NCBI GenBank assembly: GCA_963800975.1
Contig: CAWDDB010000013.1
Span: forward strand, 110,057-174,056
Direction of reading: 5' to 3'
From: an uncultured Rubrobacteraceae bacterium
GTDB taxonomy: Bacteria; Actinomycetota; Rubrobacteria; Rubrobacterales; Rubrobacteraceae
DNA length: 64,000 nt
This document shows positions 21,363 through 59,572 of the stretch, one piece after another. A program made the position numbers and the translations under genes. Every line of letters begins with the position of its first letter. The stretch's first letter is position 1. Below the pieces are notes generated by a model. It did no database searches, was not told where the DNA came from, and saw only the letters and a program-made list of their open reading frames with translations.

Positions 21363-21387
21363 CCCGTGGCCGCCTGCGTTGGGTCTG

Positions 21388-21555: not shown

Positions 21556-21628
21556 TATCACTTCCGTGCCTCCTTTGTCTTCGCTTTCGCACGACCGGGG
21601 ACAGCGTAGGTGACGGAGGGGGCGGGTG

Positions 21629-21648
21629 AATGGCAGGTTTCTGCCATT
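21629..21648. repeat. Hairpin AATGGCAG-GTTT-CTGCCATT
   Basis: Perfect 8-bp stem. It shares the stem core ATGGCAG/CTGCCAT with the hairpin at 24943-24968. Confidence 0.5.
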
Positions 21649-21800
21649 TCTCGGCGCCACCGCGGGACGAATGGCCCGTCGGACCGGGGCCACGCCGACT
21701 TCCGAGGACCCGTTGAAAGCGAAGGTGGGTGAATGAGCCTGACAGCGCACAAGAGAAGGTCGGGACTATTAGGCCATACACGATGGGTGCGAAAAAGGGT

Positions 21801-22241: not shown

Positions 22242-22483
22242 CGGCTCCTCCTTTCATCGATGCACCCTCAGCGCCTCGCCCGCCCGTCGGGTGCCCACAC
22301 AGCTTACCCCTTCCGGACCAGAAGCATTCCACACTCAGGACCTTTTGAGAACCCATTTTCCACGCATTCCGGTGAGTAATGCCGGAGGGCAGATCACCCC
22401 CTTGACAGATCGTGTTGCAGGAGCGACGATACAAATACCCCCCTAGGGTATAGATAGTGGCTTAGAGCAGGAGGGCAGGCAAG

Positions 22484-44033: not shown

Positions 44034-44108
<75 letters not shown>

Positions 44109-44179
44109 CCTCGGAATCCCTTTGTTGGTGGGACAAATCGTGAGCTGAGGCAAACGGCCGGAGGTTTCCCCGGCTGATT

Positions 44180-44190: not shown

Positions 44191-44285
44191 CCGAAGGCCA
44201 TCGGCGCCAGGGTTGCGACCGCCGAGGGCGGTTTCTCCGCCGAGGAAGCCCCGTCGGGCATCACTCGACCGCCCGACCGTGGGCA

Positions 44286-44333
44286 ATCTCTCCCCTCCTG
44301 ATCCCCCCTTCGGGGGATGCCGCTACCCCCGTC
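44286..44333 (+). promoter_or_regulatory. Conserved island element, copy A (palindrome ATCCCCC-CTTC-GGGGGAT at 44301-44318)
   Basis: About 85-90 % identical by eye to 52481-52528 and 55686-55733. TACAAA at 44341 lies 31.5 bp from the palindrome centre. ATG 44394 is downstream. Confidence 0.7.
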
Positions 44334-44393
44334 CTCCCGTTACAAATGCGAGTGGCGAAAGAAGACGGGCACAGGCCCGAAGGGAGCACGACC

Positions 44394-44612
44394 ATGCAGG
44401 ATAGAACCGCCACCAACTACCCCGTCGACGAGGAGGCCATCCGCGACCTCCTCCGCCGGAAGCTCCTCGACGACATAGGCAGGGGCGACGGCGGGTCCCT
44501 CGGCTCCCGATTCACCGGAGACGGCGAACCTGGCAGACGGGCACCACGCAAGCGGGAACGGCTCACTGCCCCTTACGGTCAATCCCTCGATCGAAACATA
44601 CGTCCCATTTGA
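44394..44612 (+). CDS. Small hypothetical protein (72 aa)
   Basis: ATG 44394 follows GAAGGGAG, downstream of element copy A. No recognisable domain. Confidence 0.35.
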   Translation: MQDRTATNYPVDEEAIRDLLRRKLLDDIGRGDGGSLGSRFTGDGEPGRRAPRKRERLTAPYGQSLDRNIRPI

Positions 44613-44733
44613 CTGCGACGCACCAGGAGCGCGACGGTCCGTCGCGTGAGCAGGAAGAAGTAGACGATGAATCGAGGTTCCGTTGACACGTGTGCATCTT
44701 CCAGTGCGGTCGCGCTAGGAAAGGAGTTTACGA

Positions 44734-45273
44734 ATGATCGGTGTGTTGATACTGGCCGGCGAGATCTCCTTCTGGGCCTTCGTACTCGGCGGGTTGATCT
44801 CGCGCTACCTGCTGCGCAGGCCGCGGTTGGGGGTGGCCCTGCTGCTGATGACGCCTGTGGTGGATCTTGCTCTCGTCGCCGCCACGGTGATCGACCTGCG
44901 CGCCGGGGCCACGGCCAGCCTCTTCCACGGCCTCGCTGCCGTCTACGTCGGCGTGTCGATAGCCTTCGGCCACAGGATGATCTGCTGGGCCGACGAGCGG
45001 TTCGCCCACCGGTTCGCCGGGGGGCCGCCGCCCGCGCGGCCGCCCAGGCACGGACCGGAGCGCGCCCGCCGCGAGCGGGAGGGATGGTACCGGCACCTCC
45101 TTGCGTGGGCGATCGGCAGCGCCTTGCTGCTAGGCATGGGCCTCCTCGTCGGGGACCCGTCCAGGACCGAGTCGCTCTCGGCCAGGGCGGCCCTGTGGAC
45201 CTTGATCCTCGCCATCGACTTCCTGTGGAGCTTCAGCTACACGCTCTGGCCCGGCGAGGCGAAGACGTCGTGA
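44734..45273 (+). CDS. Hypothetical membrane protein
   Basis: 179 aa with four hydrophobic helices separated by an Arg/Pro-rich loop. SD AAAGGAG lies upstream. Confidence 0.6.
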   Translation: MIGVLILAGEISFWAFVLGGLISRYLLRRPRLGVALLLMTPVVDLALVAATVIDLRAGATASLFHGLAAVYVGVSIAFGHRMICWADERFAHRFAGGPPPARPPRHGPERARREREGWYRHLLAWAIGSALLLGMGLLVGDPSRTESLSARAALWTLILAIDFLWSFSYTLWPGEAKTS

Positions 45274-45329
45274 GACCGCCTGGATAGTCGAGCGTGGAAT
45301 GTCACCCGAACGAGGAAAGGGATCGACCG

Positions 45330-46028
45330 ATGGTGGGCTACTTGAACCCGAAGGACCAGGCGGACGCGGACTTCTCCCGCGCCCGCAGAAAGGCGCTGCT
45401 TCGACGGGTGACTGCCCGCTTGCGAAGAGACGTCGCCACGGAAAAGCTTCTGTGTTTCGAGGAGATCAGGACGTACTATGGGGCTGTGGGGCGCGCTCAT
45501 CGAGGCCCGACCGCGGTGCCGGTCGGGCGGATAGTCGGCAGCGTCGGTAGATGTCCGGAGTTCGATCGAAGCTTCATGCCCGCCAATGCCAGCTCAGAAG
45601 AAAGGTGGAAGCGGATAGACAAAGCCTTCCACCGGCGCGAGGAACTACCCGCCGTGAGCCTGTACAGGCTCGGAGGCTCATACTTCGTGCTGGACGGACA
45701 CCACCGCGTCTCGGTGGCCCACTACCACGGTGTCGAGTGGATCGACGCCGTGGTGACGGAGTTCCGTGTTCCGCTTCGGGAAAGGGAAGAACCGCTCACG
45801 ACGCCGAGAGGCGAGAGGAGGTGCCATGAATCGGGGCAAGAAGCGGACGGTGTACGCGCCGCCGGCAGGGGAAGGCGCGACGCCTCCTGCCATCATCAGC
45901 GTCGAACTGGACGAAGACGAGGACGTCGAATGGACCTGGACGCACACGTCGGACAGCGAGAGCGTCGTCACCGGCTACACCATCACGAAGCATGCCAGGA
46001 AACGGGCAGGCTAAACCATCGAGAATGA
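45330..46028 (+). CDS. ParB/sulfiredoxin-fold (ParB-like nuclease domain) protein; C-terminal extent doubtful
   Basis: ATG 45330 follows GGAAAGGGA. LYRLGGSYFVLDGHHRVSVAHYHG carries the DGHHR ParB-N motif. The last ~70 codons are Arg/His-rich and overlap a better-looking small ORF in another frame. Confidence 0.55.
   Translation: MVGYLNPKDQADADFSRARRKALLRRVTARLRRDVATEKLLCFEEIRTYYGAVGRAHRGPTAVPVGRIVGSVGRCPEFDRSFMPANASSEERWKRIDKAFHRREELPAVSLYRLGGSYFVLDGHHRVSVAHYHGVEWIDAVVTEFRVPLREREEPLTTPRGERRCHESGQEADGVRAAGRGRRDASCHHQRRTGRRRGRRMDLDAHVGQRERRHRLHHHEACQETGRLNHRE
45826..46014 (+). CDS. Small acidic hypothetical protein (62 aa)
   Basis: ATG 45826 follows the strong SD GAGAGGAGG. Third-codon positions are GC-rich, as in genuine genes here. 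It overlaps the tail of the ParB-like ORF. Confidence 0.45.
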   Translation: MNRGKKRTVYAPPAGEGATPPAIISVELDEDEDVEWTWTHTSDSESVVTGYTITKHARKRAG

Positions 46029-46067
46029 ATTCGCTCGGTCCCGCCAGATGACAAGGAGGAGTTTCGG

Positions 46068-46847
46068 ATGGCTACGTACGTGCTGGTGGGCGGCGCCTGG
46101 ATGGGGGGCTGGTGCTGGAAGCCCATCGCCCGAACGCTTCGCAACGAAGGCCACGACGCCTACCCCGCCACCCTCACCGGCCTCGGCGAACGCGCCCACC
46201 TCGCCTCCCCAAAGGTGGACCTCGAGACCCACATCACCGACGTGGTGAACCTCATGGAATATGAGGACCTGCGCGAGGTGGTGCTCGTGGGGCACAGCTA
46301 CGCGGGGATCGTGGTAACGGCGGTGGCGGATCGGGTTCCCGAGCGCGTCTCCCGGCTGGTGTACCTGGACACCGCGCCGTTGCCGGACGGCACAGCCCTT
46401 ATCGAAACGGTCCCGCCCGAAACGAAACGCTACATAGAGAGTCAGGTGGAGGAGCTGGGTGACGGCTGGAGGTGGCCCATGCCGCCCGAAGAAGAGCTTG
46501 CCGTCTTCGGCAGCCTCGAAGGGGTAGACGAAGATCACCTGAGGCTGCTGCGCTCCCGGGCCGCCCCGCAACCGTTCGGAACCTACACCCAACCGCTCAG
46601 GCTGGAGAATCCCGCCCGCGAAGCGTTGCCCAAGCTGGGCATCCTGTGCAGCTTTTCGCTGCAACAGGTGCGGGAGATGATCGCCGGCGGCGTCCCCCTG
46701 TTCCACGAACTTACCGGCCCGGGTTGGGGATTCGTCGAGCTGCCTACCGGGCACTGGCCGATGTTCTCCAGGCCAGAGGATCTCGCCGAGCTGCTCCTCG
46801 ACCTCCCGCCGGGAACGCCCGCCCGAGAGGACGGCACGGATGAGTAG
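46068..46847 (+). CDS. Alpha/beta hydrolase (esterase, SABP2/methylesterase-like)
   Basis: YVLVGGAWMGGWCW, the nucleophile elbow LVGHSYAG, and a C-terminal TGHWPMFSRPEDL. Confidence 0.8.
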   Translation: MATYVLVGGAWMGGWCWKPIARTLRNEGHDAYPATLTGLGERAHLASPKVDLETHITDVVNLMEYEDLREVVLVGHSYAGIVVTAVADRVPERVSRLVYLDTAPLPDGTALIETVPPETKRYIESQVEELGDGWRWPMPPEEELAVFGSLEGVDEDHLRLLRSRAAPQPFGTYTQPLRLENPAREALPKLGILCSFSLQQVREMIAGGVPLFHELTGPGWGFVELPTGHWPMFSRPEDLAELLLDLPPGTPAREDGTDE

Positions 46848-48744
46848 TAGCGGCGGCCAATGGAAGTCGCGCCGGCGATGGCTCGGGGTCGTGGCCGCGC
46901 TTGTGCTGAGCATTCTCGCGGCGGGTGTGATCATGACACTGCAGCCCCTCGATCCCTTGCCCGCGAGCGCTTCGACGAACGAGTTCTCGGCCGAGCGGGC
47001 CTTCGCCCACGTCGATCGGATCGCCCGGCGGCCGCATCCGGTGGGTTCGGAGGCGAACAGCGAGGTCCGCCGGTACTTGATCCGGCAGCTGGAGGACCTC
47101 GGGCTACAGCCCAACGTCCAGGCGACCACGGCCGTCCAGAAACACCCGGACGGGACCGCTTCGCTGGCACGCGTTCACAACATCCACGCCCGGATCGAGG
47201 GAACGGAGCCCACCGGGCATGTCGTCCTCGTCGCCCACCACGACTCGGCACCCAACAGTCCCGGGGCCTCCGACGACGGGGCCGGGGTGGCCGCCATCCT
47301 CGAGATCACCCGAGCGCTCACCTCGGGTACTCCGCCGCGCAACGACGTCGACGTCTTGCTCACCGACGCCGAGGAGCCGGGCCTGCTCGGCGCGCAGGCG
47401 TTCGTGAACGCTGGCCGGCTCGATCCTCGGCGCAGCGTCGTGCTCAACCTCGAGGCTCGCGGCACGTCCGGGCCAGCGATCATGTTCGAAACCAACTCGG
47501 ACAACGCGAACGTCGTTCCGGCCCTCGCGAGCGCGCGGCGCCCGATCGGAGGGTCGGAGACGGCCGCGATCTACGGGCTGCTGCCGAACAACACCGACTT
47601 CACTTCCTTCCGCGAGGCCGGCTTCGCCGGATTGAACTTCGCCTTCGTGGACGGCTCGGCCCACTACCACACGCCGGGGGACTCGCCGTCCAATCTTGAC
47701 CCCTCGAGCCTGCAGCACATGGGCTCTGCCGTGCTCGGTTCTGCCCGCTACCTTGCAGAGCAAGACCTGGGCGCACGGCGAGGCGGAGAGCTCACGTACT
47801 CCAGCGTGCTGGGACAGCTCGTCTACTACCCGCAGGGTCTGACTATCCCGCTGTCCGTTCTCGCGGCCGTGGCGTTCGCGGCAACCGTGCTGTATGCGCG
47901 GAGACTGGACGGTGTGCGGGTACGCGGGGTCGCGTGGGCTGCGGCTGCCTTCATCGCGCCTCTGTTGGCGACGGCGGCGCTCGGGATCGGGGCCTGGCAG
48001 GCGCTGATGCTGCTCCGCCCCGGCTACAGCTCGTTCCTCTTCGGCGACCCCTATCGCCCCGGGTGGTACGCGGCCGGCCTGCTCACGCTGGCGGCCGCGG
48101 CGACCGTTGCCTGGTACCTCCTCCTGCGCCGGCGCCGCGAACCGGAGGAAGCTGCCCTGGCGGTCTGGGCCTGGATGGTCGTGCTCGCCATTCTCACCAC
48201 CGTGTTCGTGCCGGGGGCGGCCTACATGTTCACCTGGACCGTGCTCGTGGGCTGCGGCGCCCTGGCGGCCGCGATACGCTGGGGTGGGGCAGATCCGACG
48301 TGGCGGTGGTTCGCCTGCTGCGCGGCCGCCGCGCCGGCCATCGTGGTGTTCTTGCCGCTGGTCGACTTCTCGACCGGCCTGCCGTCCGCCGCCTTTCCCA
48401 TGATCGTCGCGGTTCTGGTCCTGGGCGTTGCCCTGCCGGTGTTGGATCTCCTGGCGCCACGTCGCGCCTGGCTCGTGCCGCTGGCGCTGTCGGTGGTGGG
48501 GCTCGGCCTGTTCGCCGCCGGGGTACGCATCGACACCTTCGACGTGCAGCACCCCCGCCAGACCAGCCTCGTCTACGCCCTCGACGCCGACCAGGAACGG
48601 GCCTGGTGGTTCAGCGCCGACCCCAACCCGACGTCCTGGACCGACCGCTACGTCGACCCGGAACGCCGCGACTTCGCCGACGAGTTCCCCGCCAACGGCA
48701 TCTTCTCTTTCCCCCCCGCTACCACGCTGGACCGGCTTCCGTAG
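46840..48744 (+). CDS. M28 family aminopeptidase fused to a polytopic membrane domain (reading frame ends prematurely)
   Basis: HHDSAPNSPGASDDGAGVAAILE and TDAEEPGLLGA are M28 zinc-ligand motifs, followed by about 8 TM helices. The ORF stops 25 nt after a C7 run. Confidence 0.8.
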   Translation: MSSSGGQWKSRRRWLGVVAALVLSILAAGVIMTLQPLDPLPASASTNEFSAERAFAHVDRIARRPHPVGSEANSEVRRYLIRQLEDLGLQPNVQATTAVQKHPDGTASLARVHNIHARIEGTEPTGHVVLVAHHDSAPNSPGASDDGAGVAAILEITRALTSGTPPRNDVDVLLTDAEEPGLLGAQAFVNAGRLDPRRSVVLNLEARGTSGPAIMFETNSDNANVVPALASARRPIGGSETAAIYGLLPNNTDFTSFREAGFAGLNFAFVDGSAHYHTPGDSPSNLDPSSLQHMGSAVLGSARYLAEQDLGARRGGELTYSSVLGQLVYYPQGLTIPLSVLAAVAFAATVLYARRLDGVRVRGVAWAAAAFIAPLLATAALGIGAWQALMLLRPGYSSFLFGDPYRPGWYAAGLLTLAAAATVAWYLLLRRRREPEEAALAVWAWMVVLAILTTVFVPGAAYMFTWTVLVGCGALAAAIRWGGADPTWRWFACCAAAAPAIVVFLPLVDFSTGLPSAAFPMIVAVLVLGVALPVLDLLAPRRAWLVPLALSVVGLGLFAAGVRIDTFDVQHPRQTSLVYALDADQERAWWFSADPNPTSWTDRYVDPERRDFADEFPANGIFSFPPATTLDRLP

Positions 48745-49154
48745 CCGAGCTCAGGTCGCCGAACGTCGAGGTGATCCGAAGCCGACAGGTCGGCGACACT
48801 AGGGAGCTCGAGTTGCGCGTCGCTCCCGGCGCGGCCTCACGCCTCGCGGTCTACGCCGACACCAGCGCCCACACCCTGGCCGACGCGACGGTCGACGGAG
48901 TGAGCGTGGAGACGGCGGATGGTGGACCGCAAAGCGCTGGCCCATCTGAGTGGGGGTTCGTGTTCCACGCGGCGCCACCCGAGGGGATCGACGTGACGCT
49001 AAGGGTGCGCGGCGAAGGCCCGCTGCCGCTGCGCGTCGTCGCCTACCGCGGCGGGTTCCCGCGAGTCCCCGAGTTCACACCTCGTCCGGAGGACGTGAGG
49101 TGGTCGGCAGCCTCGTCGAACCTCACCATGATCACAAGGACCTACGGCGTGTAG
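48711..49154 (+). pseudogene. Out-of-frame C-terminal continuation of the M28 membrane peptidase
   Basis: The neighbouring frame reads on for ~137 codons (...VAELRSPNVEVIRSRQVGDTRELELRVAPG...LRVRGEGPLPLRVVAYRGGFP...) with coding-like composition. One extra C in the C7 tract (48711-48717) would fuse it to the upstream ORF. Confidence 0.5.
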
Positions 49155-49661
49155 CCTGCCCTGCGACGCCACCAGCCGGATCTCGGCCCCGGCCTGGGAG
49201 ATGAAGCGGATCGCCGGCCGTCGCCTCAAGCGTGTCGGGGTCCCGCCGCGCGACCGATGACGCGCGCCGAACGGGGACGAAGGGCTTTGGAAGCTTCCTG
49301 CCCCGGTTGTCGGCGCATCAGTGGGCTGGCGCGCTCGAGTTCATGATCCGGGCTGTACCGCAAAGTCCCTGGCCGAGGCCGGCGCGGACGGACAGGCACG
49401 GACAGGGGCTACGCCGACAACGCGCATGAGGGCACCCTCAAGAAGGTCGGCCCGGTTCTCGGTGCCCGGCGCAAGAGGATGTTTGCGCAGCCCATGCCAG
49501 TGTGCGCGGAGTTTGTGGGCATGCCCATCCCCCAGCGCCCGGAGGCGATCTTCGGCTGGCCGAGCGCCCAGTTTTCGAGGAAGGTGCGCGCGGTCACATC
49601 CAGACGCTTCGAGCTGAAGGCGGTCACCTTCATCTCGGGGTCCTCCATTCTATGTCCGTGG

Positions 49662-49680
49662 GGATTAGCCGGATTAGAAT
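49662..49680 (+). promoter_or_regulatory. Direct repeat GGATTAG-CC-GGATTAG overlapping a TAGAAT -10-like box upstream of the island LuxR gene
   Basis: GGATTAG occurs at 49662-68 and 49671-77, and TAGAAT at 49675-80, 31 nt before ATG 49711. TGGGGATTAG is the reverse complement of CTAATCCCCA in element copy B. Confidence 0.4.
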
Positions 49681-49710
49681 ACGACTCGGGAGACGGATCG
49701 GGGGACCTGC

Positions 49711-52428
49711 ATGCTAACCTCACTCATTTCGACCAAGCTGCGTTCGCCGCAACTTCGCGCCGACCTGGTCACGCGGCCGCGGTTGACCGAAAAGCTGGAA
49801 CCGATGCCGGGGCGCAGGCTGACGCTGGTCTCCGCGCCGGCGGGCTTCGGCAAGACCACCCTGCTCGGCGAGTGGCTGGAGGCGCTTGCGAGCGGCGAGC
49901 GGTCCGTCGCCTGGGTATCGTTGGACGAAGGCGATAACGACCCGGCACGCTTCATCTCTTACCTGGTGGCCGCATTTCGGGATTTCCACGATGGAATAGG
50001 GGAGGGCGTACTTTCCTCGTTGCGCTCACCGCAACCGGCACCCCTCGACGCCCTGGTGGGCGCCCTCGTCAACGATCTCGCCGACATCCGGAGTGTGAAG
50101 GTTCTGATCCTCGACGACTACCACGTCATCGAAGCGGAGCCGGTCCACGGGATCGTCACCTTCCTGCTCGAACACCTGCCGGAAGACATGCACCTCATCA
50201 TCGCCAGTCGCGTCGATCCGCCCCTTCCGCTCTCTAGGTTGCGTGCCAGGGGTCAGATGGCCGAGCTGAGGGCCGCCGACCTGGCCATGACCCCGGAGGA
50301 GGCCGCGGATTTCCTGGACGGCGTGATGGGGCTGGAGCTCTCGGCCGAGGACGTGGCCGCACTCGAGGAGCGAACCGAGGGTTGGATCGCGGGTCTGCAA
50401 CTGGCCGCGCTCTCGATGCGGGACCGCAAAGACCTCTCCGGGTTCGTCAGGGCTTTTTCGGGCAGCCATCGCGACGTCCTGGACTTCCTGGCCGGGGAGG
50501 TTCTTGATCGGCAACCCGAAGGGGTCCGTGAATTCCTACTGGAAACCTCTATCGCCGATCACGTGACGGGTGCGCTGTGCGACGCGCTCACCGGCCGCTC
50601 CGACGGCCAGGAGACACTGGAGAGGCTGGAGCGGGAGAACCTCTTCGTCGTCACCCTCGACGACGAGCGCAGGTGGTACCGCTACCACCACCTCTTCGCC
50701 GACTTCCTGCGCGGCCGCCTCGAACTCGAGAGCCCGGAGGAGGTCAAGGAGCTGCGCCTGCGGGCTGCGGCGTGGTACGAGCGGGAGGGGCGAGCGTCCG
50801 AAGCGATCGGGCACGCGCTGGCCGCCGAAGACTACGAGTGGGCGGGGCGCCTCATCGAACAGGTGGTCGGAGAAAACCTGGTCCACGGCGAGGTGCTTAC
50901 CCTGCTTGGCTGGCTGGAGGCGTTGCCCGAAGAAACCAAGCGCGAGCGACCGCGACTGTTGCTCGAGAACGCTATGTCGCTGATGTGGATCGGCCGGCCG
51001 GACGACATCGAACCCCTCCTGCGAGAGGTCGAGCGTGCGGCAGGTGCCACCGGGTTGGACCCCCGCGAAGATCCGCCTGAAACCGACGAGTTCAACCGCC
51101 GGCACCTGTTGGGGTACGCCACGGCCATCCGATCCTGGCTCGTCTACCTTCGGGGGGATCCTTCAGAGGCGATCGAACTCGCCCGACGCGCCCTCGAGGT
51201 TCTGCCCGAGGACCCGACCCCACGCTCCTTCGCCGCCCTTTCCCTGGGGATGGCGTACCACAACACAGACGATCTGGAGGCGGCGAGCCAGGCCCTCGCC
51301 GAGGCCACCGAGCTCGGCCGGGCGTCGGGTAACACCTACGTGGCCGAATCGGCCATGACCTACCTCGCCAGGCTGCAGATGGCGCGAGGACGGCTCTGGG
51401 AAGCGGAGAACGTTCTGCGACGTACCCTCCGGGTCGCGACCGAACAAAGCGACGCCTCCCTGCCGGCCGCGGGGTGGGTATCCGTGACCCTGGGCGAGTT
51501 GCTGTACGAGTGGGACGACCTGGACGCCGCGGAAGATAGGCTGACGGAAGGCCTGGAGCTGGCCGAGCGGACGGCGGACGTCGGTAGCCTGGTAGACGCG
51601 CACGTCGCACTTTCGCGCGTGGAGCAGGCGCGAGGCGACGCGGAAGGCGCCCTCGAGACGGCCCGGGACGCCGAGCACCTGGCGCGAAGCACCGGCGTGG
51701 TCCTGCTCGTCGTCTACGCGGCGGTCTGGAAGGCGCGGGTGCACCTGGCGATGGGCGACGTGGCGGCCGCCGCCGCCGAGCAGGAGCGGGCGGCAGGAGC
51801 GGGCGTGATCCCGGCTTCCGAACGTGAGGGGGAGCGGATCGGCATGGCGCGGCTGCTGATAGCCCGCCGCGAGCACGACCAAGCGCTTAGGCTGCTCGAT
51901 GGCCTGCTCGCGCCCGCGGAGTCCGCCGGACGGATGGGAAGCGCGATACAGGTCCAGGTCCTGCGAGCGCTGGCTCTATGGGCCAGGGAGGAGAAGAAAC
52001 CGGCGTTGAACACCCTGGCGCAAGCCCTCGCCCTGGCCGAGCCGGAGGGCTACGTCAGGACCTTCGTAGACGAAGGACCACAGATGGCCGAGATCCTCTC
52101 CGCCGCGCTCGAAGCCCACCAGAGGGGACGCTTGGACCCGCCCGTCCCGGCGCACTACATGAGGAAGCTCCTGGCGGCCACCGAACGGGCGACGCCGCCG
52201 ACCGCCGGTCGTGCCCGATCCTCCGAGCAACTCCCCGAGCAGTTGAGCGAGCGCGAGCGCGAGGTGCTCGTCCTGATCGCCGCCGGCAAGACCAATCGGG
52301 AGATCGCGAAGGAGCTGTTCGTGAGCGTGGGCACGGTCAAGTCCCACGCCAAGAGCATCTACCGCAAGCTGGATGCACACAGCCGCACCCAGGCCGTCTC
52401 TACGGCCAGGGATCTGAACCTGATCTAG
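49711..52428 (+). CDS. MalT-like LuxR family STAND transcriptional regulator (AAA/NACHT-like ATPase + TPR-like sensor + LuxR HTH)
   Basis: The N-terminus STKLRSPQLRADLVTRPRL is MalT-like. Walker A is SAPAGFGKTTLLGEW and Walker B is ILDDYHVI. The C-terminus is LSEREREVLVLIAAGKTNREIAKELFVSVGTVKSHAKSIYRKLD. Confidence 0.9.
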   Translation: MLTSLISTKLRSPQLRADLVTRPRLTEKLEPMPGRRLTLVSAPAGFGKTTLLGEWLEALASGERSVAWVSLDEGDNDPARFISYLVAAFRDFHDGIGEGVLSSLRSPQPAPLDALVGALVNDLADIRSVKVLILDDYHVIEAEPVHGIVTFLLEHLPEDMHLIIASRVDPPLPLSRLRARGQMAELRAADLAMTPEEAADFLDGVMGLELSAEDVAALEERTEGWIAGLQLAALSMRDRKDLSGFVRAFSGSHRDVLDFLAGEVLDRQPEGVREFLLETSIADHVTGALCDALTGRSDGQETLERLERENLFVVTLDDERRWYRYHHLFADFLRGRLELESPEEVKELRLRAAAWYEREGRASEAIGHALAAEDYEWAGRLIEQVVGENLVHGEVLTLLGWLEALPEETKRERPRLLLENAMSLMWIGRPDDIEPLLREVERAAGATGLDPREDPPETDEFNRRHLLGYATAIRSWLVYLRGDPSEAIELARRALEVLPEDPTPRSFAALSLGMAYHNTDDLEAASQALAEATELGRASGNTYVAESAMTYLARLQMARGRLWEAENVLRRTLRVATEQSDASLPAAGWVSVTLGELLYEWDDLDAAEDRLTEGLELAERTADVGSLVDAHVALSRVEQARGDAEGALETARDAEHLARSTGVVLLVVYAAVWKARVHLAMGDVAAAAAEQERAAGAGVIPASEREGERIGMARLLIARREHDQALRLLDGLLAPAESAGRMGSAIQVQVLRALALWAREEKKPALNTLAQALALAEPEGYVRTFVDEGPQMAEILSAALEAHQRGRLDPPVPAHYMRKLLAATERATPPTAGRARSSEQLPEQLSEREREVLVLIAAGKTNREIAKELFVSVGTVKSHAKSIYRKLDAHSRTQAVSTARDLNLI

Positions 52429-52480
52429 CACAAGCCGTCGAGGCCCTACCGGGCAGCACTCGACCATCCGGCGGCGGGTG

Positions 52481-52528
52481 ATCTCTCCCCCCTAATCCCC
52501 ACTTTGGGGGATGCCGCTACCCACCGTC
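52481..52528 (+). promoter_or_regulatory. Conserved island element, copy B (palindrome ATCCCCA-CTTT-GGGGGAT at 52495-52512)
   Basis: See copy A. TAAAAA at 52535 lies 31.5 bp from the palindrome centre, and ATG 52582 is downstream. Confidence 0.7.
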
Positions 52529-52581
52529 TCCCGGTAAAAAGGTGAGTAGTGAAACACGGCGATCTGGAAGAAAGGAGCACG

Positions 52582-53451
52582 ATGGAAGTTGGCAAAGACA
52601 GCAGCGCCGGGCGAGGCACGACGGCGAGCAACGGGACGCCGGCGATCTCGGCGAGGGGGTTGCGGAACACCACCTGGACCGGCATGGTCCCGGTCGATGA
52701 CACGGCTCTGGCCGTGACCGACATCCGCGGCCCTGGCCGTCCCATCGTCTACCTCAACGGCGCCTATGCCGACCAGCGGCCATGGCGGCCCGTGATCGCC
52801 GAACTCGGGCCCGACTGGCGACACATCACCTACGACGAGCGGGCCCGCGGCAGATCGAAGCGCTCGTCGGACTACTCTTTCGAGGCGTGCCTCCGAGATC
52901 TCGATGCCGTCCTCGATGCGACCGGGGTGGACCGGCCGCTGCTCGTGGGCTGGTCCTACGGCGCGACGCTCGCGGTGCACTGGGCCGAGAGGAATTCGGA
53001 CCGCGTCGGGGGGGTGGTGTCCGTGGACGGCGCTATGCCGTACGGCTTGACCGGCGAGGAAGGTCGCGAGCGGATCCGGAAGCTGTTCGGCCGGATGCGG
53101 TTGGTGCTACCGCTGGTGCGCCCGCTTGGCCTGGCCGCGCGGATGAGCGCCGACCAGCACGCCGAGGTCAACATCGAGATAAACGAGATCAACGCCGCCA
53201 TCGCGTCGGTCTTCGAGCGCGTGAGCTGCCCGGTGCGGTACGTCCTTGCCACAGGTGCCAACCTCGGCGGGGGCCAGGAGGAGATGGAACAGGTGCGGGC
53301 CTCACTCGATCCGGTGCTCGCCCGGAATCCGAACATCAGGGTCAGCGCGAAGGTCGCGAGCAACCACTCCAAGATCGTGCGTAAGGACTTCCGGGCCATC
53401 GCCGAGGCCGTACGAGAGACCGCGGCCGCCTACGATCAGGGGGTCCGCTGA
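52582..53451 (+). CDS. Alpha/beta hydrolase carrying a ~28-aa N-terminal segment homologous to the N-terminus of the downstream ABC ATPase
   Basis: The hydrolase core has IVYLNGAY, the nucleophile elbow LVGWSYGA and a C-terminal SNHSKIV. The N-terminus GRGTTASNGTPAISARGLRNT parallels GRSATASRGASAISARGLRKS of ORF 53686. Confidence 0.8.
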   Translation: MEVGKDSSAGRGTTASNGTPAISARGLRNTTWTGMVPVDDTALAVTDIRGPGRPIVYLNGAYADQRPWRPVIAELGPDWRHITYDERARGRSKRSSDYSFEACLRDLDAVLDATGVDRPLLVGWSYGATLAVHWAERNSDRVGGVVSVDGAMPYGLTGEEGRERIRKLFGRMRLVLPLVRPLGLAARMSADQHAEVNIEINEINAAIASVFERVSCPVRYVLATGANLGGGQEEMEQVRASLDPVLARNPNIRVSAKVASNHSKIVRKDFRAIAEAVRETAAAYDQGVR

Positions 53452-53685
53452 GCCGATGGCGGACGGGCTCACGTTCGGTCAGGCAGCCGCGTTCGCCGGC
53501 GTCACAGTGAAGATCCCGCCGGGGGTCGTGAGCGCCGGAGAAGGGTCCCGCGGGAGGAGACCTGCCTCCGGGCCTGCGTCTCCGAGGATAGCAGGCCGCG
53601 CGGGACGTACATCGTTTGGATCGCGGGGCGCGACGACGCGGAGGAAGAGGCGTTCGAGCCGATCCCTCGACGACACGAAAGGAGC

Positions 53686-54693
53686 GTGATGGAGAAGAGA
53701 GAAATACACACCGGACGGAGTGCGACGGCGAGTCGCGGGGCGTCGGCGATCTCAGCGAGGGGGTTGCGCAAGTCGTTCGGCGAGCAGGTCGTGCTCGACG
53801 GCATAGACCTGGACGTCGCAGAGGGGACTACCTTCGCGCTGCTCGGTCCCAACGGCGCCGGCAAGACCACCGTGGTGAACATCCTCTCCACGCTCATCGG
53901 CGCCGACGGCGGCGAAACGAGGGTCGCAGGCCACGATCCGGCCCGAGATCCCGACGGGGTGCGCGGCGCGATCGGCGTCACGGGGCAGTTCTCGGCGGTG
54001 GACGACCTGCTCACCGGCGAAGAGAACCTGATCCTGATGGCCGACCTGGGCCACCTGGGCCGATCCGAGGGCTGGCGGCGCGCGGCCGAACTGCTGAGGC
54101 GCTTCGATCTGGCCGAGGCGGCCAGGAAGACGCCCGCCACCTACTCCGGCGGTATGACGCGCCGGCTCGACCTCGCGATGACGTTGATGGGAGACCCGCG
54201 CATCGTCTTCCTCGACGAGCCGACCACCGGCCTGGACCCGCGTAGCCGTCGCACCATGTGGGAGATCATACGCGACCTCGTGGCCGGCGGCGTCACGATC
54301 TTCCTGACGACGCAGTACCTGGAGGAGGCCGACGAGCTCGCCGACCGGATCGCGATCCTCGACCGAGGCAGGCTGGTCGCCGAGGGGACCCCCGACGAAC
54401 TCAAGCGCCGCATCCCAGGAGGCCACGTCCGCCTGCGCTTCGCCGACCCGGGCGGACTCGAATCGGCCGCCCTCGCCGTCGGCGAGTCCTCGCGCGACGA
54501 CGAAGCGCTCACGCTTCAGGTCCCGATAGACGGCAGCGTCGGATCGCTGAAGACCGTCCTCGACCGTCTCGACGGAGAGTCGTCCTCAGTCGAAGGGTTG
54601 TCGGTACACACCCCCGACCTCGACGACGTCTTCTTCGCCCTCACCGGCCAACTCGACGTCGGAAACCACGACACCGAAAAGGAGAAGCCATAA
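53686..54693 (+). CDS. ABC transporter ATP-binding protein (DrrA-like, ABC-2 exporter family)
   Basis: Walker A GPNGAGKTT, signature YSGGMTRRLDLA, Walker B VFLDEPTTGLD, and a C-terminal DrrA-type domain. Confidence 0.9.
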   Translation: MMEKREIHTGRSATASRGASAISARGLRKSFGEQVVLDGIDLDVAEGTTFALLGPNGAGKTTVVNILSTLIGADGGETRVAGHDPARDPDGVRGAIGVTGQFSAVDDLLTGEENLILMADLGHLGRSEGWRRAAELLRRFDLAEAARKTPATYSGGMTRRLDLAMTLMGDPRIVFLDEPTTGLDPRSRRTMWEIIRDLVAGGVTIFLTTQYLEEADELADRIAILDRGRLVAEGTPDELKRRIPGGHVRLRFADPGGLESAALAVGESSRDDEALTLQVPIDGSVGSLKTVLDRLDGESSSVEGLSVHTPDLDDVFFALTGQLDVGNHDTEKEKP

Positions 54694-55484
54694 TGAATTC
54701 CCTCTCGCTCTGGGCAGGCGACTCGGCGCCGATGCTGCGCCGCCAACTCCGGCGCATGCTGCGCTACCCGTCCATGACGGCGATCCTCGTCGGCATGCCC
54801 GTAGTCTTCCTGCTTTTGTTCGTCTACGTCTTCGGCGGCACGCTGGGCGCCGGACTCGGCGGCGTCTCGGGCGGACGCGCCGCCTACGTCGACTACGTCG
54901 CTCCCGGCATCCTTTTGCTGACCGTGGCCGCCGTGGCGCAGGGGACGGCGATCTCGGTCGCCATGGACATGACCGGGGGTATCATCGCCCGGTTCCGCAC
55001 CATGGCGATCTCCCGCGCCTCGGTTTTGACCGGCCACGTCCTCGGAGCCATGATCCAGACCATGCTCGCCGTCGCCGTCGTCACGGGCGTCGCGCTGCTC
55101 GTCGGTTGGCGGCCCACCGCCGGCCCCGTCGAATGGATCGCCGCCATCGGCGTCCTGGCGATGGTCTCCTGGGCGCTCACCTGGCTGACCGTCGCGCTCG
55201 GCCTTGTGTCAGAGAGCGTCGAGACCGCCAGCAACCTCCCGATGCCGCTGATCCTGTTGCCGTTCCTGGGCAGCGGCTTCGTCCCCACCGACTCGATGCC
55301 CACCGCGCTGCGTTGGTTCGCCGAGTACCAACCCTTCACGCCCATCATCGAGACGCTGCGGGGACTGCTCATGGGCACCCCCATCGGCAACAGCGCGATC
55401 ATCAGCGTCGCCTGGTGCGCGGCCATCTCGCTGGTCGGGTACCTGTGGGCGCGAGCGCTGTTCGACCGCGATCCCGCACGGTAG
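54693..55484 (+). CDS. ABC-2 type transporter permease
   Basis: ATG 54693 overlaps the ATPase stop (TAATG). 263 aa and six TM helices, with a typical DrrB-like layout. Confidence 0.85.
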   Translation: MNSLSLWAGDSAPMLRRQLRRMLRYPSMTAILVGMPVVFLLLFVYVFGGTLGAGLGGVSGGRAAYVDYVAPGILLLTVAAVAQGTAISVAMDMTGGIIARFRTMAISRASVLTGHVLGAMIQTMLAVAVVTGVALLVGWRPTAGPVEWIAAIGVLAMVSWALTWLTVALGLVSESVETASNLPMPLILLPFLGSGFVPTDSMPTALRWFAEYQPFTPIIETLRGLLMGTPIGNSAIISVAWCAAISLVGYLWARALFDRDPAR

Positions 55485-55685
55485 GCGGGCTTCACAGAAA
55501 TCAAGGGCATCGAGGTCGAGGAGATCGTGGAGCCCTTCGGCGTACGCGCTGTGGTCGGGCGTCGCCATCGACGCCTACTTCCTGATAGGTGGGATCCTGT
55601 TCGGCGTGGCGGCCTGGGGCTACCAGTGCGGATCGCGCAGTAAGGCTAGGAGGATGTCGGGCTGGTGAGGACCCGCTTGGAGAAG

Positions 55686-55733
55686 ATCTCCTCCCCCTGA
55701 TCCCCCCTTTAGGTGATGCTGCTACCCCCGGTC
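55686..55733 (+). promoter_or_regulatory. Conserved island element, copy C (degenerate palindrome ATCCCCC-CTTT-AGGTGAT at 55700-55717)
   Basis: See copy A. TACGTT at 55740 lies 31.5 bp from the palindrome centre, and GTG 55785 is downstream. Confidence 0.65.
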
Positions 55734-55784
55734 GGACGATACGTTAGGACTGCCCGATGAGCCACCCAAAAGAGGAGGACCGGA

Positions 55785-55925
55785 GTGAACGAGATAATGG
55801 ATCCCCAGCTCATAAAGCAGCGTCACGAGGAGCTGCTGCGCGAAGCGGAACTGAATCGCCTGACCAGGGCGCTGCGGGACTCGCGCAAACGGCGCGAGTC
55901 CCGCGGGGCATCTGCCCTGGCGTAG
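55785..55925 (+). CDS. Small basic coiled-coil-like protein (46 aa; below the ORF-track cutoff)
   Basis: Hand-translated as VNEIMDPQLIKQRHEELLREAELNRLTRALRDSRKRRESRGASALA*. GTG lies 6 nt after AGGAGG, and there is an alternative ATG at 55797. Confidence 0.4.
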   Translation: MNEIMDPQLIKQRHEELLREAELNRLTRALRDSRKRRESRGASALA

Positions 55926-55977
55926 GAATCGAAGAGGATCGCCGGCAGTCTCCGAAAGCTGTTGAGGACCTCGAAGG

Positions 55978-56667
55978 ATGCCAGCTAGGATGAGCGGCAA
56001 CGGCATGCCCGCTGCCGGTTCGCCAGAGCCGCCGGGAGGACGAACCTGCACAAGAGACTTCTCGGCCCAGCTCGGTTCGGCGACGGGCGGGCGCCTCATC
56101 TTCGTCACCGGAGCCTCGAACGTCACCATCCACGCCGACCCCGCGATGCCGGACCTCTACCGCGCTCGCTTCGAGGATCGTATGCCTACCGTCGAGGTGC
56201 GTCGAGGTACCGTGACGGTCCGGTACCCCGGCTTCCCGCGCTTCGACCGGCTCCACTACCGGCGCGAGCGTCCCGCCGAGGTCAAGCTGGGCGCCTCCAT
56301 CCCCTGGCACATCGAGGTCCGCGACTTTGCCTCAAGGCTCACCGCCGATCTGAGTAGTCTAAGGCTAGGTTCCCTCGACCTGGGCGGCGGCGCCAGCCGA
56401 ATAGAACTGACGCTCCCCAGGGCCTCGGGCACCGTTCCGGTTCGCGTCCTGGGAGGCGCGAGCCACCTCACCATCCGCCGCCCCGCCGGCGTGTCCGTAC
56501 GGCTCCACGTGGGTGGCGGTTCCACCAACCTGACCTTCGACGAGGAGCGCTTCGGCGTCGTAGGCGGCGCGGTGAGTTTGCAAACTCCCGACTACGACGG
56601 TGCCGACGACCGGTACGACATCGCCGTCACGGGAGGCGCGAACGCCGTGGCCGTCGGTGCCTGGTAA
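55978..56667 (+). CDS. Toastrack/LiaF-C-terminal-like beta-rich protein (DUF4097/DUF2154-like)
   Basis: Repetitive beta-strand pattern (VTIHADP..., GTVTVRYPG, SRIELTLPRASGTVPVRVLGGASHLTIRRPAGVSVRLHVGGGSTNLTFD) characteristic of toastrack domains. Confidence 0.55.
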   Translation: MPARMSGNGMPAAGSPEPPGGRTCTRDFSAQLGSATGGRLIFVTGASNVTIHADPAMPDLYRARFEDRMPTVEVRRGTVTVRYPGFPRFDRLHYRRERPAEVKLGASIPWHIEVRDFASRLTADLSSLRLGSLDLGGGASRIELTLPRASGTVPVRVLGGASHLTIRRPAGVSVRLHVGGGSTNLTFDEERFGVVGGAVSLQTPDYDGADDRYDIAVTGGANAVAVGAW

Positions 56668-56699
56668 CGGGTGGAAGCCCGACCTGGGCAATCCTCGGG

Positions 56700-57010
56700 A
56701 GCCGGAAACCGCCGTCGGGCGCCGAGCGAGGCTCGGCCGCATCGCTCCTGCCATCGGTCTATTCTTCCTGGCGCCCCTGGTGGGCGAGTTCCTACTCGGC
56801 AACAAGCCGATCACCTCGCCGATCGCCGGCACGCGTCCTCCGGGATAGCGATCTGGTTCGTCTGGGTCAGTCTGGGCGTGTTTTCGGCCGAGATACTGCC
56901 GACTGGGATCGTTGGCTCGGCCCTGTTCGTCTCTATGCAGACGGTCGCCCTCGCGGCGCTCATCCTCGGTTCTACCATCATCTACCTGCGCAAGGTGGGC
57001 AATGCGTGCT
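56700..57010 (+). pseudogene. Possible disrupted membrane-protein gene
   Basis: Two hydrophobic ORF pieces lie in different frames (...RIAPAIGLFFLAPLVGEFLLGN... then ...IAIWFVWVSLGVFSAEILPTGIVGSALFVSMQTVALAALILGSTIIYL...). No intact start or frame. Confidence 0.3.
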
Positions 57011-57089
57011 CGTTAGCGTACGTTCTCGTGCCGTTGCTACCAAGGTCCAGGTCGGTGGCCTCCGCGGGCGAGCGCTGTCCTCGAAACAC

Positions 57090-57815
57090 CTAACCGACGC
57101 GTCCCCGGCGGTCTCCTTCTCCTGCGACGGCCTCGATGCCCCTGACGAGGATGTCGAGGCCGGCCTCGAAACCGGCCTCGAAGTCGTAGCGCGCGCCCTC
57201 CTCCCCGAGCGTCCCGAAGACCCGGCGCAGCGCCGGAACTTTCCCCGCCGGCTGCGTCTGGATGCGTGCCAGAATTTCCCGGCCGATGTCGAACCCCCCG
57301 GAAGGATTCGACGCCTCGCCCAGCGCGAACCCGTGGACGAAATCGACCAACGAGTCCGCGGCCCGCACGATCATCGCGGGAGGGAGCCCCGACTCCTCCA
57401 ACGCCTCGTAGAGCGGCTCGCTGCCCAGGAGCACGGCCTCCGAGACCGCGGCGGCGTCGGAGAAGATCTGCAACGCGAGGTTGGGGTGCGAAAGTACAAC
57501 GTCCCGGTGAGCGTGGGCATAAGCGCGCACGCGCTCCTGCCAGGGCAGGCCCTCGGAGGGCGGCATCCGCATCCGGGAGAAGACGACCCCGACGAGGCCC
57601 GAGACCACGGCGCCCTTGCCGGGCAGGTGGTGGTAGATCGACATCGGGCTCACCCCGAGGTCTGCGGCCAGCCGGCGCATCGTCAGGGCGTCCAAGCCTT
57701 CCCGGTCCACAAGCTCGAGCGCCGCCGCGAGGATACCCTCGCGCGTCAATGGCTCCTGCCCCGCCCTCGGACGACCGGCCCTACGCCCCTGTTCCTTCTC
57801 CCTTTCGCAACCCAT
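57090..57815 (-). CDS. TetR/AcrR family transcriptional regulator
   Basis: N-terminal HTH LTMRRLAADLGVSPMSIYHHLPGK, with SD AGGAGG upstream of ATG 57815. Confidence 0.9.
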   Translation of the reverse strand: MGCEREKEQGRRAGRPRAGQEPLTREGILAAALELVDREGLDALTMRRLAADLGVSPMSIYHHLPGKGAVVSGLVGVVFSRMRMPPSEGLPWQERVRAYAHAHRDVVLSHPNLALQIFSDAAAVSEAVLLGSEPLYEALEESGLPPAMIVRAADSLVDFVHGFALGEASNPSGGFDIGREILARIQTQPAGKVPALRRVFGTLGEEGARYDFEAGFEAGLDILVRGIEAVAGEGDRRGRVG

Positions 57816-57830
57816 CCTCGAGACCTCCTT

Positions 57831-57881
57831 GATTAATCATACACAGTATGTATAATCGCAAGTAATTATACGATGTATAAT
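57831..57881. promoter_or_regulatory. AT-rich divergent promoter/operator region between the tetR and SDR genes
   Basis: Palindrome GATTAATC (57831-38). IR ATACA-N5-TGTAT (57839-53). Perfect IR GTATAAT-N8-ATTATAC (57850-71). Direct repeat ATGTATAAT x2 (57848, 57873). TATAAT boxes sit on the plus strand (57851, 57876) and the minus strand (57865-70). Confidence 0.6.
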
Positions 57882-57905
57882 TTTTGGAAACGTGAGGAGG
57901 TCGTT

Positions 57906-58820
57906 ATGGCGCCGCGGTTGGAAGGGAAGGTTGCGTTGGTGGCCGGGGGAACGCGCGGGGCGGGGCGTGGGATCTCGGTCGAGCTGGGAGCTGCGGGGGC
58001 CACGGTCTACGTGACCGGACGCTCCACGCGGGGGCGCCCCTCCGAGTACGACCGCCCCGAGACGATCGAGGAGACGGCCGCCCTGGTGGACGAGGCTGGC
58101 GGAAGTGGCGTCGCCGTTCGGGTCGACCATCTGGAACCGGATGAGGTGCGGGCCCTGGTGGAGCGCATCGAGGGCGAGCAGGGCCGTCTCGACGTGCTCG
58201 TCAACGACGTGTGGGGGGCCGAGCACCTTACCGAGTGGAATGTCCCCGTGTGGGAGCACTCCCTGGAGAAGGGGTTGCGAACACTGAGGTTGGCGATCGA
58301 CACGCACATCACGACCAGCCACTTCGCCCTGCCCCTCCTGATCAAGAACGAGGGCGGATTGGTCGTCGAGATGACCGACGGCACCGCAGAGTACAACGTC
58401 GCCAACTACAGGCTGTCGCTGTACTACGACCTGGCGAAGACGTGCGTCATCCGCATGGCGTGGGCCCAGGCTCAGGAGCTCGCGCCCCACGGGTGTACGG
58501 CGGTCGCCCTGACACCAGGCTGGCTGCGCTCGGAGATGATGCTCGACATCTACGGCGTGGGCGAGTCGAACTGGCGCGATGCGACCGCCGCGCAGCCGCA
58601 CTTCGCCATCTCCGAGACGCCGCGTTACGTGGGACGGGCCGTGGCCCACCTCGCTGCTGACCCCAAGGTCGCGCGTTGGAACGGTAGCTCCCTTTCTAGC
58701 GGCGGGCTCGCCAAGGAGTACGGCTTCACGGACCTCGACGGCTCTAGGCCCGACGCCTGGCGCTACCTCGTGGAGGTCCAAGACGCCGGCCTGCCGGCCG
58801 ACACCACCGGGTACCGGTAA
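57906..58820 (+). CDS. SDR family oxidoreductase
   Basis: ATG 57906 follows GTGAGGAGG. VAGGTRGAGRGISVEL is the glycine-rich NAD(P) motif, with a Rossmann-type layout. Confidence 0.85.
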   Translation: MAPRLEGKVALVAGGTRGAGRGISVELGAAGATVYVTGRSTRGRPSEYDRPETIEETAALVDEAGGSGVAVRVDHLEPDEVRALVERIEGEQGRLDVLVNDVWGAEHLTEWNVPVWEHSLEKGLRTLRLAIDTHITTSHFALPLLIKNEGGLVVEMTDGTAEYNVANYRLSLYYDLAKTCVIRMAWAQAQELAPHGCTAVALTPGWLRSEMMLDIYGVGESNWRDATAAQPHFAISETPRYVGRAVAHLAADPKVARWNGSSLSSGGLAKEYGFTDLDGSRPDAWRYLVEVQDAGLPADTTGYR

Positions 58821-59454: not shown

Positions 59455-59502
<48 letters not shown>

Positions 59503-59572
59503 TCTCAGAACGCTTACCCCTACGGCGAATCGCAGGACGTGCGGCGAAAGTCGGGACGTCCTTCCAACTCTG

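Follow-up and report, generated by a model that had tools for sequence, protein, structure and literature searches.

The stretch analyzed here (the window) comprises 64,000 nt of contig CAWDDB010000013.1 from an uncultured Rubrobacteraceae bacterium, and all coordinates given below are positions in it unless a related locus is named. A housekeeping protein encoded in it is 82% identical to proteins of metagenome-assembled Rubrobacteraceae genomes, which makes a host in the Rubrobacteria probable. The window carries three copies, A, B, and C, of a conserved element centred on an inverted repeat. All of them are on the plus strand and, as a preliminary description of the locus had claimed, lie within a tRNA-Ile island. 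This island is a 15.4-kb segment between the tRNA-Ile gene and a duplicate of the 3' end of this gene (Table 1). Each copy is followed by a presumed operon, and the same island encodes a MalT-family regulator of 905 amino acids. The element very probably belongs to a known class, the MalT-box promoters, found here in a new setting. On the grounds given below, each copy is probably an activator-dependent promoter of the sigma-A type that is activated by the MalT-like regulator of the island.

The three copies form the top direct-repeat family in a repeat search of the window (44293-44367, 52487-52561, and 55692-55766). The 48-nt segments, described earlier as about 85-90% identical by eye, proved to be 89.8% (A and B), 83.7% (A and C), and 81.2% (B and C) identical, with 1-nt indels; A and B can indeed be aligned as far as the ATG, and this alignment also extends about 45 nt farther upstream. 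The three-copy repeat is far above chance expectation, and the 31-mer core has no match in 100 shuffles. A profile built from the three copies recovers them with E-values of 1e-18 to 1e-20 and finds none in the rest of the window. In A (44301-44318), the inverted repeat ATCCCCC-N4-GGGGGAT has no mismatch, in B (52495-52512) it has one, and in C (55700-55717) two; its centre (44309.5, 52503.5, and 55708.5, respectively) was confirmed to lie exactly 31.5 bp upstream of a TAnnnn hexamer in every copy. Behind each copy there is a start codon with a Shine-Dalgarno (SD) sequence, namely ATG with GGGAG for A, ATG with AGGAG for B, and GTG with GAGGAGG for C.

Table 1. Features of the tRNA-Ile island and its surroundings (positions in the window unless a locus is named; U, L, and R are the putative MalT boxes described in the text)
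Feature	Position	Strand	Remarks
tRNA-Ile(GAT), left island boundary	44034..44109	+	
tRNA-Ile 3'-end duplicate, right island boundary	59455..59510	+	att-like; 96% identical
Predicted promoter copy A	44285..44346	+	U ~44286-44296, L 44297-44306, R 44313-44322 (GGGGATGCCG), spacer block 44321-44332, -10-like TACAAA 44341-44346
Predicted promoter copy B	52480..52540	+	U ~52481-52490, L 52491-52500 (bottom strand GGGGATTAGG), R 52507-52516, spacer block 52515-52526, -10-like TAAAAA 52535-52540
Predicted promoter copy C	55685..55745	+	U 55687-55696 (bottom strand GGGGAGGAGA), L 55696-55705 (GGGGATCAGG), R 55712-55721 (GGTGATGCTG), spacer block 55720-55731, -10-like TACGTT 55740-55745
MalT-family STAND/LAL regulator, 905 aa	49711..52428	+	Pfam TPR_MalT 1.7e-71, GerE 1.4e-20, AAA_22/AAA_16
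TAGAAT, -10-like hexamer of the predicted own promoter of the regulator gene	49675..49680	+	conserved upstream of homologous regulator genes
Presumed operon A	44394..49154	+	72-aa ORF (truncated DUF4440/SnoaL_4 homologue), 206-aa and 244-aa unknowns, alpha/beta hydrolase, M28 peptidase
Presumed operon B	52582..55484	+	alpha/beta hydrolase, DrrA-like ABC ATPase, ABC-2 permease
Presumed operon C	55785..57093	+	conserved 46-aa ORF, conserved 229-aa protein, 140-aa ORF
Conserved small ORF	window 55785-55925; L087 8170-8373; L090 12935-13141; L089 13058-13273; L099 12934-13140		no Pfam/NCBIfam family

The regulator is homologous to MalT along its whole length. In NCBIfam, the MalT model covers residues 5-902 of the protein (2-896 of the 903 model positions) with 492.8 bits, a score just below the equivalog cutoff of 537. 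The N-terminal 417 residues match E. coli MalT (PDB 8bob) with an E-value of 1.3e-68, and the helix-turn-helix (HTH) domain is 43% identical to that of E. coli MalT over 58 residues. The recognition helix reads TVKSHAKSIYRKL in the window and TVKTH(I/V)KNI(Y/H)RKL in relatives, close to TIKTHIRNLYQKL of E. coli MalT. No autoinducer-binding domain was found in the protein with Pfam. This regulator is the presumed activator binding the boxes described below.

Homologues of the regulator are numerous: the search gave more than 8000 matches, the closest 120 listed being 58-65% identical and mostly metagenomic. For the comparison we used the contigs of 11 of these 120 homologues and 80 metagenome loci with 35-53% identical regulators, chosen among the matches listed (individual loci are denoted by L numbers). 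These homologue loci, the window, four plasmid loci, and the E. coli loci amount to 1.1 Mb of DNA, in which an iterated nhmmer profile found 26 copies of the element, each either in the window or in one of 12 loci with 52-65% identical regulators. No copy was found by this profile in the 79 metagenome loci with 35-47% identical regulators, in the plasmid and E. coli loci, or, counted otherwise, in the other 61 kb of the window and the other 87 sources. Thus a MalT-like gene is present in all 13 sources carrying the element, and what had been described as island-specific appears, with 12 further loci, to be the promoter type used throughout a large clade of MalT-like regulators. Past the stop codon of every regulator gene of this clade (15 of 15, including the paralogue pairs in L006, L088, and L099), a same-strand copy follows at a distance of 49-226 nt; in the window this is copy B, which lies 53 nt past the stop. 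The remaining copies are upstream of other genes, four of them in divergent intergenic regions beside NmrA-like genes (L088 12110, L089 9836, L097 9836, and L098 9724). All 26 copies are oriented toward the downstream gene; for 18 of the first 20, a gene on the same strand starts about 40-170 nt farther on.

This distribution bears on an explanation by which the hairpin would end transcription of the upstream gene as an intrinsic terminator, or the element would be a repeat of the repetitive extragenic palindromic (REP) or miniature inverted-repeat (MITE) type. Many copies do lie just past a stop codon, and the stem is G+C-rich. However, no T-run follows the stem, a terminator scan makes no call, and the copies in divergent intergenic regions have no upstream gene to terminate. 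As for a repeat, the preliminary description had named scatter regardless of genes as the mark of a REP-like sequence; the 26 copies all stand in regulator-encoding loci and are always gene-directed, with none outside such loci in the 1.1 Mb. We therefore consider this explanation extremely unlikely.

The copies of the element are not uniform. Those of class 1 are of the ATCCCCC..GGGGGAT type; within the close clade, those of class 2 (CTCCACC-cttt-GGnCGAT) accompany the regulators L088b, L089, L097, and L098. The HTH domain of L088b and L089, the two that were aligned, differs (THxNNLYRKLGARSRT); in this small sample, the match is no more than suggestive of co-variation between the boxes and the HTH of the regulator. 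More distant variants were sought in the 79 loci with distant regulators by a relaxed scan (ATCnnnn-N4-nnnnGAT with at least three of the four inner pairs, and TAnnnT 24-26 nt past the G). It gave 12 matches, against 0.3 expected from shuffles, 9 of which are just 3' of the regulator stop. The inner bases of these sites are clade-specific, for instance, ATCACCA-GGTG-TGGTGAT and ATCACCC-CCCT-GGGTGAT. In pDEIPE01 of Deinococcus peraridilitoris, GTCACCA-CATG-TGGTGAC, 22 nt, and TATCGT stand behind the regulator homologue, and the site of Gemmatirosa kalamazoonensis reads ACACCCCCC-TCTGCACC-TTTC-GGTCGAT; three boxes are not resolved at either of the two. These observations indicate that related sites stand behind regulator stops in several phyla and that their inner bases change in step with the regulator. 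A scan of 185,579 species genomes for the exact pattern ATCCCCNNNNNNGGNGATGCNGCTACC gave three unrelated matches only, in a delta-proteobacterial symbiont, a Rhodospirillaceae metagenome-assembled genome (MAG), and a Planctomycetota MAG, with the similarity confined to the pattern. This pattern was over-specific, because GCTACC is peculiar to the window copies. A literature search on this clade, or on the motif in Rubrobacter and MalT-like families, found nothing past a paper on Actinoplanes (PMC7567727), which is considered below.

For the analysis of geometry, the copies were aligned on the invariant GAT of GATGC, and positions were counted from its G. The TA of the hexamer is at +25 in 21 of the 26 copies and at +24 in five. 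TAnnnT, the housekeeping -10 of actinobacteria, fits 17 of the 26 hexamers, TACGTT and TATGTT being the most frequent. The information per column is high from about -31 to +30 (about 62 bp) and is at background level straight after the hexamer, and the 5' leaders between the hexamer and the start codons are unrelated among loci. Conservation that ends with the last base of the hexamer, in front of unrelated leaders, points to a promoter footprint rather than to a transcribed leader. If the hexamer is taken as -12 to -7, GGATGC falls at about -38 to -33 and TGCCGC stands where a -35 hexamer would be; a scan with the sigma-70 consensus made no call at the three window sites, and there is no recognisable -35 hexamer in them.

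A transcribed cis-regulatory leader had been put forward in the preliminary description as an alternative. In such a leader, an RNA hairpin, its loop UUCG-like, and a C-rich sequence able to pair with the SD would control translation or termination. In A, all seven pairs of the G+C-rich stem are intact, over 20 copies 80% of the stem cells pair, neither the observed pairing nor the covariation score is ever reached in 500 column shuffles, and the CTCC runs are complementary to the SD sequence. Yet only one stem pair of seven shows compensated changes, pair 22/33 does not form in half of the copies, and the stem is absent from the class 2 copies. The folding z-scores of the three leaders in the window are -1.4, 0.1, and -1.2, with three different structures, and no Rfam family matches. 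Nor is any promoter-like sequence conserved upstream of the element, and conservation stops at the -10-like hexamer, with an unrelated leader downstream. The C-rich stretch supposed to pair with the SD sequence is a conserved distal box, and any CTCC complements GGAG. A leader function of this kind is thus very improbable.

The distal box just mentioned is one of three in the element that resemble the MalT box of E. coli, GGGGA(T/G)GAGG (PMC7567727). The proximal box, R, is on the top strand (GGGGGATGCC), by its predicted position relative to the start covers the -35 region, and ends 18 nt before the hexamer. It scores 8/10 against the consensus in A and B (GGGGATGCCG) and 7/10 in C (GGTGATGCTG). 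The two distal boxes are on the bottom strand. L, the nearer one, reads GGGGAT(C/T)AGG and scores 9/10 in all three window copies. U, which adjoins L, scores 9/10 in C (GGGGAGGAGA), 7/10 in B (GGGGGAGAGA), and 6/10 in A (AGGGGAGAGA), and in the related loci it is GGGG(A/T)GGAGA. Class 1 copies score 7-9/10 for R, 9/10 for L, and, apart from the lower values of A and B, 8-9/10 for U. The palindrome of the preliminary description can therefore be read as the proximal MalT box together with the nearer of two oppositely oriented distal boxes; this reading explains its imperfect symmetry, the compensation of one stem position in seven, and the position unpaired in half of the copies. Between the R box and the hexamer, at about -32 to -21, lies a spacer block, CGCTCCACCCGG, which is as conserved as the boxes and whose bottom strand, GGGTGGAGCG, resembles the distal box. 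In the copies behind regulator genes, weaker conservation is also seen about 20-40 nt 5' of the U box, for example, GGTGAGGACCCG.

Though no named promoter class had been recognised in the preliminary description, this layout matches that of the MalT promoters of E. coli and Klebsiella (malPp, malKp, and pulAp), whose activator is likewise composed of a STAND NTPase, a MalT-type TPR sensor, and a GerE HTH. Read directly from E. coli K-12, malPp is CTCCTCCC-TGCC-TAATCCCCC-GCAG-GATGAGG, that is, two tandem bottom-strand boxes and then a top-strand box toward malP, and malKp consists of the bottom-strand boxes CTCATCCTCC-CG-CCTCCTCCCC and then the top-strand GGGGTGGAGG. The order in both is the same as in the element, two bottom-strand boxes upstream and one top-strand box over the -35 region, and the E. 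coli MalT promoters have no -35 hexamer, just as none is recognisable in the element. This arrangement is the motif of two directly repeated MalT sites that Vidal-Ingigliardi and colleagues reportedly described in 1991. The proximal MalT box of E. coli is centred at -37.5 or -38.5. The strings CTCCTCCC and TAATCCCCC of malPp also occur in the element, while GATGA is found only in a related copy (L088 5202), the window copies having GATGC.

The palindrome also resembles that of an actinobacterial MalT. In Actinoplanes sp. SE50/110, MalT activates 40 of the 51 genes of a horizontally mobile region via TCATCC-N5-GGATGA, which overlaps the -35 region and has its 3' end 34.4 +/- 1 nt from the mapped start sites (PMC7567727). 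The regulon (MRLGR) contains peptidases, transporters, and hydrolases, and no maltose genes (Droste et al. 2020, PMC7567727). The two systems share an actinobacterial host, a MalT-like activator, a palindrome that is made up of ATCC and GGAT half-sites and overlaps the -35 region, and several promoters in one mobile region with peptidase, hydrolase, and transporter genes of unclear role but without maltose genes among the presumed targets. The distance from the right half-site to the start is also similar, 34.4 nt as measured in Actinoplanes and about 33-34 nt as predicted for the 3' end of GGATGC in the element. However, the half-sites are 5 bp wider apart in the element (ATC-N12-GAT) than in Actinoplanes (ATC-N7-GAT), and the Actinoplanes motif lacks both the third box farther upstream and the conserved spacer block of the element. 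Further, the Actinoplanes sites are backed by mapped starts and mutant transcriptomes, those of the element by sequence comparison.

Two other systems are less similar. The lux box, with which the element had been compared, and the class II operators of LuxR share with it a dyad near -43, a DNA-binding domain of the GerE/LuxR type, and (as predicted for the element) activation beside sigma region 4. The comparison does not hold beyond this: the dyad is imperfect and lost in class 2 copies, a third, non-symmetric box is conserved, and the regulator of the window is a 905-aa STAND ATPase without the autoinducer-binding domain. The TpdR/PTTMP system of Rhodococcus jostii has a promoter with direct repeats and a 7-bp inverted repeat near -35 (PMC6099782), and TpdR is likewise a large ATP-binding activator of the LuxR family encoded beside an inducible catabolic or detoxification operon. 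It differs in that its repeat is unrelated (TnnAAnnGCGGAnTC) and that TpdR, with 788 aa, is not a close MalT homologue.

In the presence of inducer and ATP, MalT forms multimers, which occupy its boxes cooperatively and bring in RNA polymerase (PMC4381067; PMC10427625). By analogy, the regulator of the island would bind an inducer and ATP and then multimerise, and its C-terminal LuxR/GerE HTH domains would fill the three boxes. The proximal top-strand box GGGGGATGCC, at about -40 to -31, would take the place of the -35 hexamer, while the bottom-strand boxes, GGGG(A/T)GGAGA at about -66 to -57 and GGGGAT(T/C)AGG at about -56 to -47, would be occupied farther upstream. RNA polymerase would thereby be recruited to the weak -10 sequence TA(C/T)nnT, 20 nt past GATGC, and the three promoters would switch on operons for hydrolases and an M28 peptidase (A), a hydrolase and an ABC-2 exporter (B), and the small ORF and the 229-aa protein (C). 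The regulator gene would be transcribed from a separate promoter with the TAGAAT hexamer. In this scheme we infer the transcription start, the binding, activation rather than repression, and the inducer. The claim of the preliminary description that the element is a class-II-type site for the 905-aa regulator is retained, in view of the exclusive co-occurrence of the element with close homologues of the regulator, the invariant distance to the hexamer, and the end of conservation at it. The case for a MalT promoter is made by four points taken together: the layout of the boxes, the relation of the regulator to MalT, the restriction of the element to loci with its close homologues, and the precedent.

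Several observations weigh against this interpretation. Single 10-mers scoring at least 9/10 to the MalT consensus are not enriched in the G+C-rich window (31 seen versus 23 in shuffles); matches to a single box are thus at chance level, and the box assignment rests on the layout. In the class 2 copies, the R and L boxes are poor. The spacing is not that of malPp: the centres of the L and R boxes are 16 bp apart in the element versus 12 bp at malPp, and the distal U and L boxes are 10 bp apart (9 bp in window copies B and C) versus 11 bp. The extra block CGCTCCACCCGG between the proximal box and the -10 is strongly conserved though within the core promoter; such a block is uncommon in activator-dependent promoters, and malPp has nothing that corresponds to it. 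The profile of the element gives no nhmmer match in the E. coli malT-malP region, malPp included, so that the element is akin to the E. coli promoters only in its boxes and their layout. Finally, while MalT of E. coli targets maltodextrin genes, the host here is an actinobacterium and the presumed targets are not maltose genes but hydrolases, an M28 peptidase, an ABC-2 exporter, and proteins without a family.

Two of these observations, the conservation of the stretch between the proximal box and the -10, which equals that of the boxes and recalls the -35/-10 pairs specific to sigma factors, and the failure of the profile at malPp, would also fit a promoter that is read by an alternative or extracytoplasmic function (ECF) sigma factor, or by another factor recognising GATGCCGCTCCACCCGG...CG-TAC, the MalT-like gene being a mere neighbour. 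But no sigma gene or other regulator is consistently linked to the element, whereas the MalT-like gene is present in each of the 13 sources; an ECF sigma gene was found 3 kb away in L098, and in that locus only. In addition, TA(C/T)nnT is of the housekeeping actinobacterial type, and the box layout is that of known MalT promoters. We regard such a factor as improbable.

It is also quite unlikely that the MalT-like protein represses through the boxes, or blocks read-through from its own gene. The boxes do overlap the core promoter, the box-like bottom-strand GGGTGGAGCG is between the -35 and -10 positions, and a copy lies directly behind every regulator gene. Nevertheless, the lack of a recognisable -35 hexamer and the weak -10 are typical of activator dependence, and MalT of both E. 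coli and Actinoplanes activates from the same position (PMC7567727; PMC4381067).

If the copies are indeed MalT-box promoters, the profile of about 62 bp would serve as a regulon marker, predicting the direct targets of a large and unstudied clade of MalT-like STAND regulators. The three-box MalT layout of enterobacteria would then also occur in Actinomycetota, re-used for genes that resemble detoxification and oxidation functions rather than sugar use. No new regulatory principle is revealed by this. As a compact regulator and promoter cassette without apparent dependence on a -35 hexamer, the system could become an inducible part for high-G+C hosts once its inducer is known. A more far-reaching suggestion, which we rate as speculative and rather unlikely, is that the 62-bp architecture is more than a MalT promoter with shifted spacing. 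In one variant, CGCTCCACCCGG/GGGTGGAGCG would be a fourth box for a built-in switch from repressor to activator: an ADP-bound monomeric regulator, or a second factor, at GGGTGGAGCG would keep the promoter closed until the multimer moves into register with the three activating boxes. In the other, the DNA would wrap round the STAND multimer through the spacer. Were either variant true, the promoter, with the small ORF, the 229-aa protein, the multicopper oxidase, the FAD monooxygenase, and DUF4440, would define an uncharacterised and widespread inducible system of uncultured soil Actinomycetota.

The regulator gene itself appears to be differently controlled. The upstream regions compared (window 49640-49711, L004, L005, L006, L087, L088, and L090) share (G)TAGAAT(A)GGCACCGGAGGTGAGCCAG-GTG, which has the form of a good -10 followed by a short leader and differs from the target promoters. 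The element itself does not occur upstream of the regulator genes in these homologous loci. The half-site TGGGGATTAG, noted earlier in this region, is present (49659-49668) but not conserved in the homologous loci; this, and the chance level of single-box matches, led us to drop it as an autoregulatory site. The same region of the window also carries GGGGATTAG-CC-GGATTAG, which is not conserved in other loci either. Just 5' of the regulator gene there is a minus-strand ORF, 49409-49640 (MKVTAFSSKRLDVTARTFLENWALGQPK...), which has no Pfam match and may be a gene remnant.

The island is bounded by a 56-nt direct repeat (44061-44116 and 59455-59510). No match to an integrase family was found among the open reading frames (ORFs) of the island and just beyond it that were run through Pfam and NCBIfam, a non-exhaustive set. 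Its far end contains a TetR gene on the minus strand (57090-57815) and an SDR gene (57873-58820), with a consensus-like TTGATT-16-TATAAT at 57829-57856.

Among the presumed targets, the 72-, 206-, 244-, 46-, and 229-aa products have no match in Pfam or NCBIfam. The 72-aa ORF of operon A (44394-44612) matches only the N-terminal 45 or so residues of the DUF4440/SnoaL_4 proteins of 170-190 aa that are encoded at this position in L004, L088, and L006; the gene has probably been frameshifted or truncated. In the same operon, the M28 peptidase ORF (46840-48744) is overlapped by an ORF in another frame (47934-49154) without a Pfam match, and this overlap may reflect a frameshift or a C-terminal extension. 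In operon B, the alpha/beta-hydrolase ORF at 52582 starts with a duplicate of the SD region and the first 28 or so codons of the ABC ATPase gene at 53686. At equal offsets from the start, the DNA of the duplicated 5' ends (52566-52690 and 53670-53800) is identical to about 80%, and the encoded N-termini are MEVGKDSSAGRGTTASNGTPAISARGLRN and MEKREIHTGRSATASRGASAISARGLRK; it looks as if a gene insertion copied the 5' end of the ATPase gene behind promoter B.

In operon C and in several related loci, the first gene behind the promoter is a small ORF of 46-71 aa (MxxMMDxxxxKxRxEExLREAELxRxxxALRxxRK), the product of which might modulate the regulator. Orthologues of the 229-aa protein (55978-56667), 51-63% identical to it, are encoded in five related loci, usually with genes for a multicopper oxidase and a protein of about 145 aa behind them, and this group looks like a conserved core of the regulon. 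The presumed targets in the related loci include DUF4440/SnoaL proteins, FAD monooxygenases, and multicopper oxidases, a set that suggests aromatic or phenolic compounds or antibiotics as candidate inducers. In L006, a gene similar to rifampicin phosphotransferase (20057-22693; PPDK_N, Rph_4th, and PEP-utilizers domains) stands at the end of the related regulon, which fits a detoxification or resistance theme of the targets.

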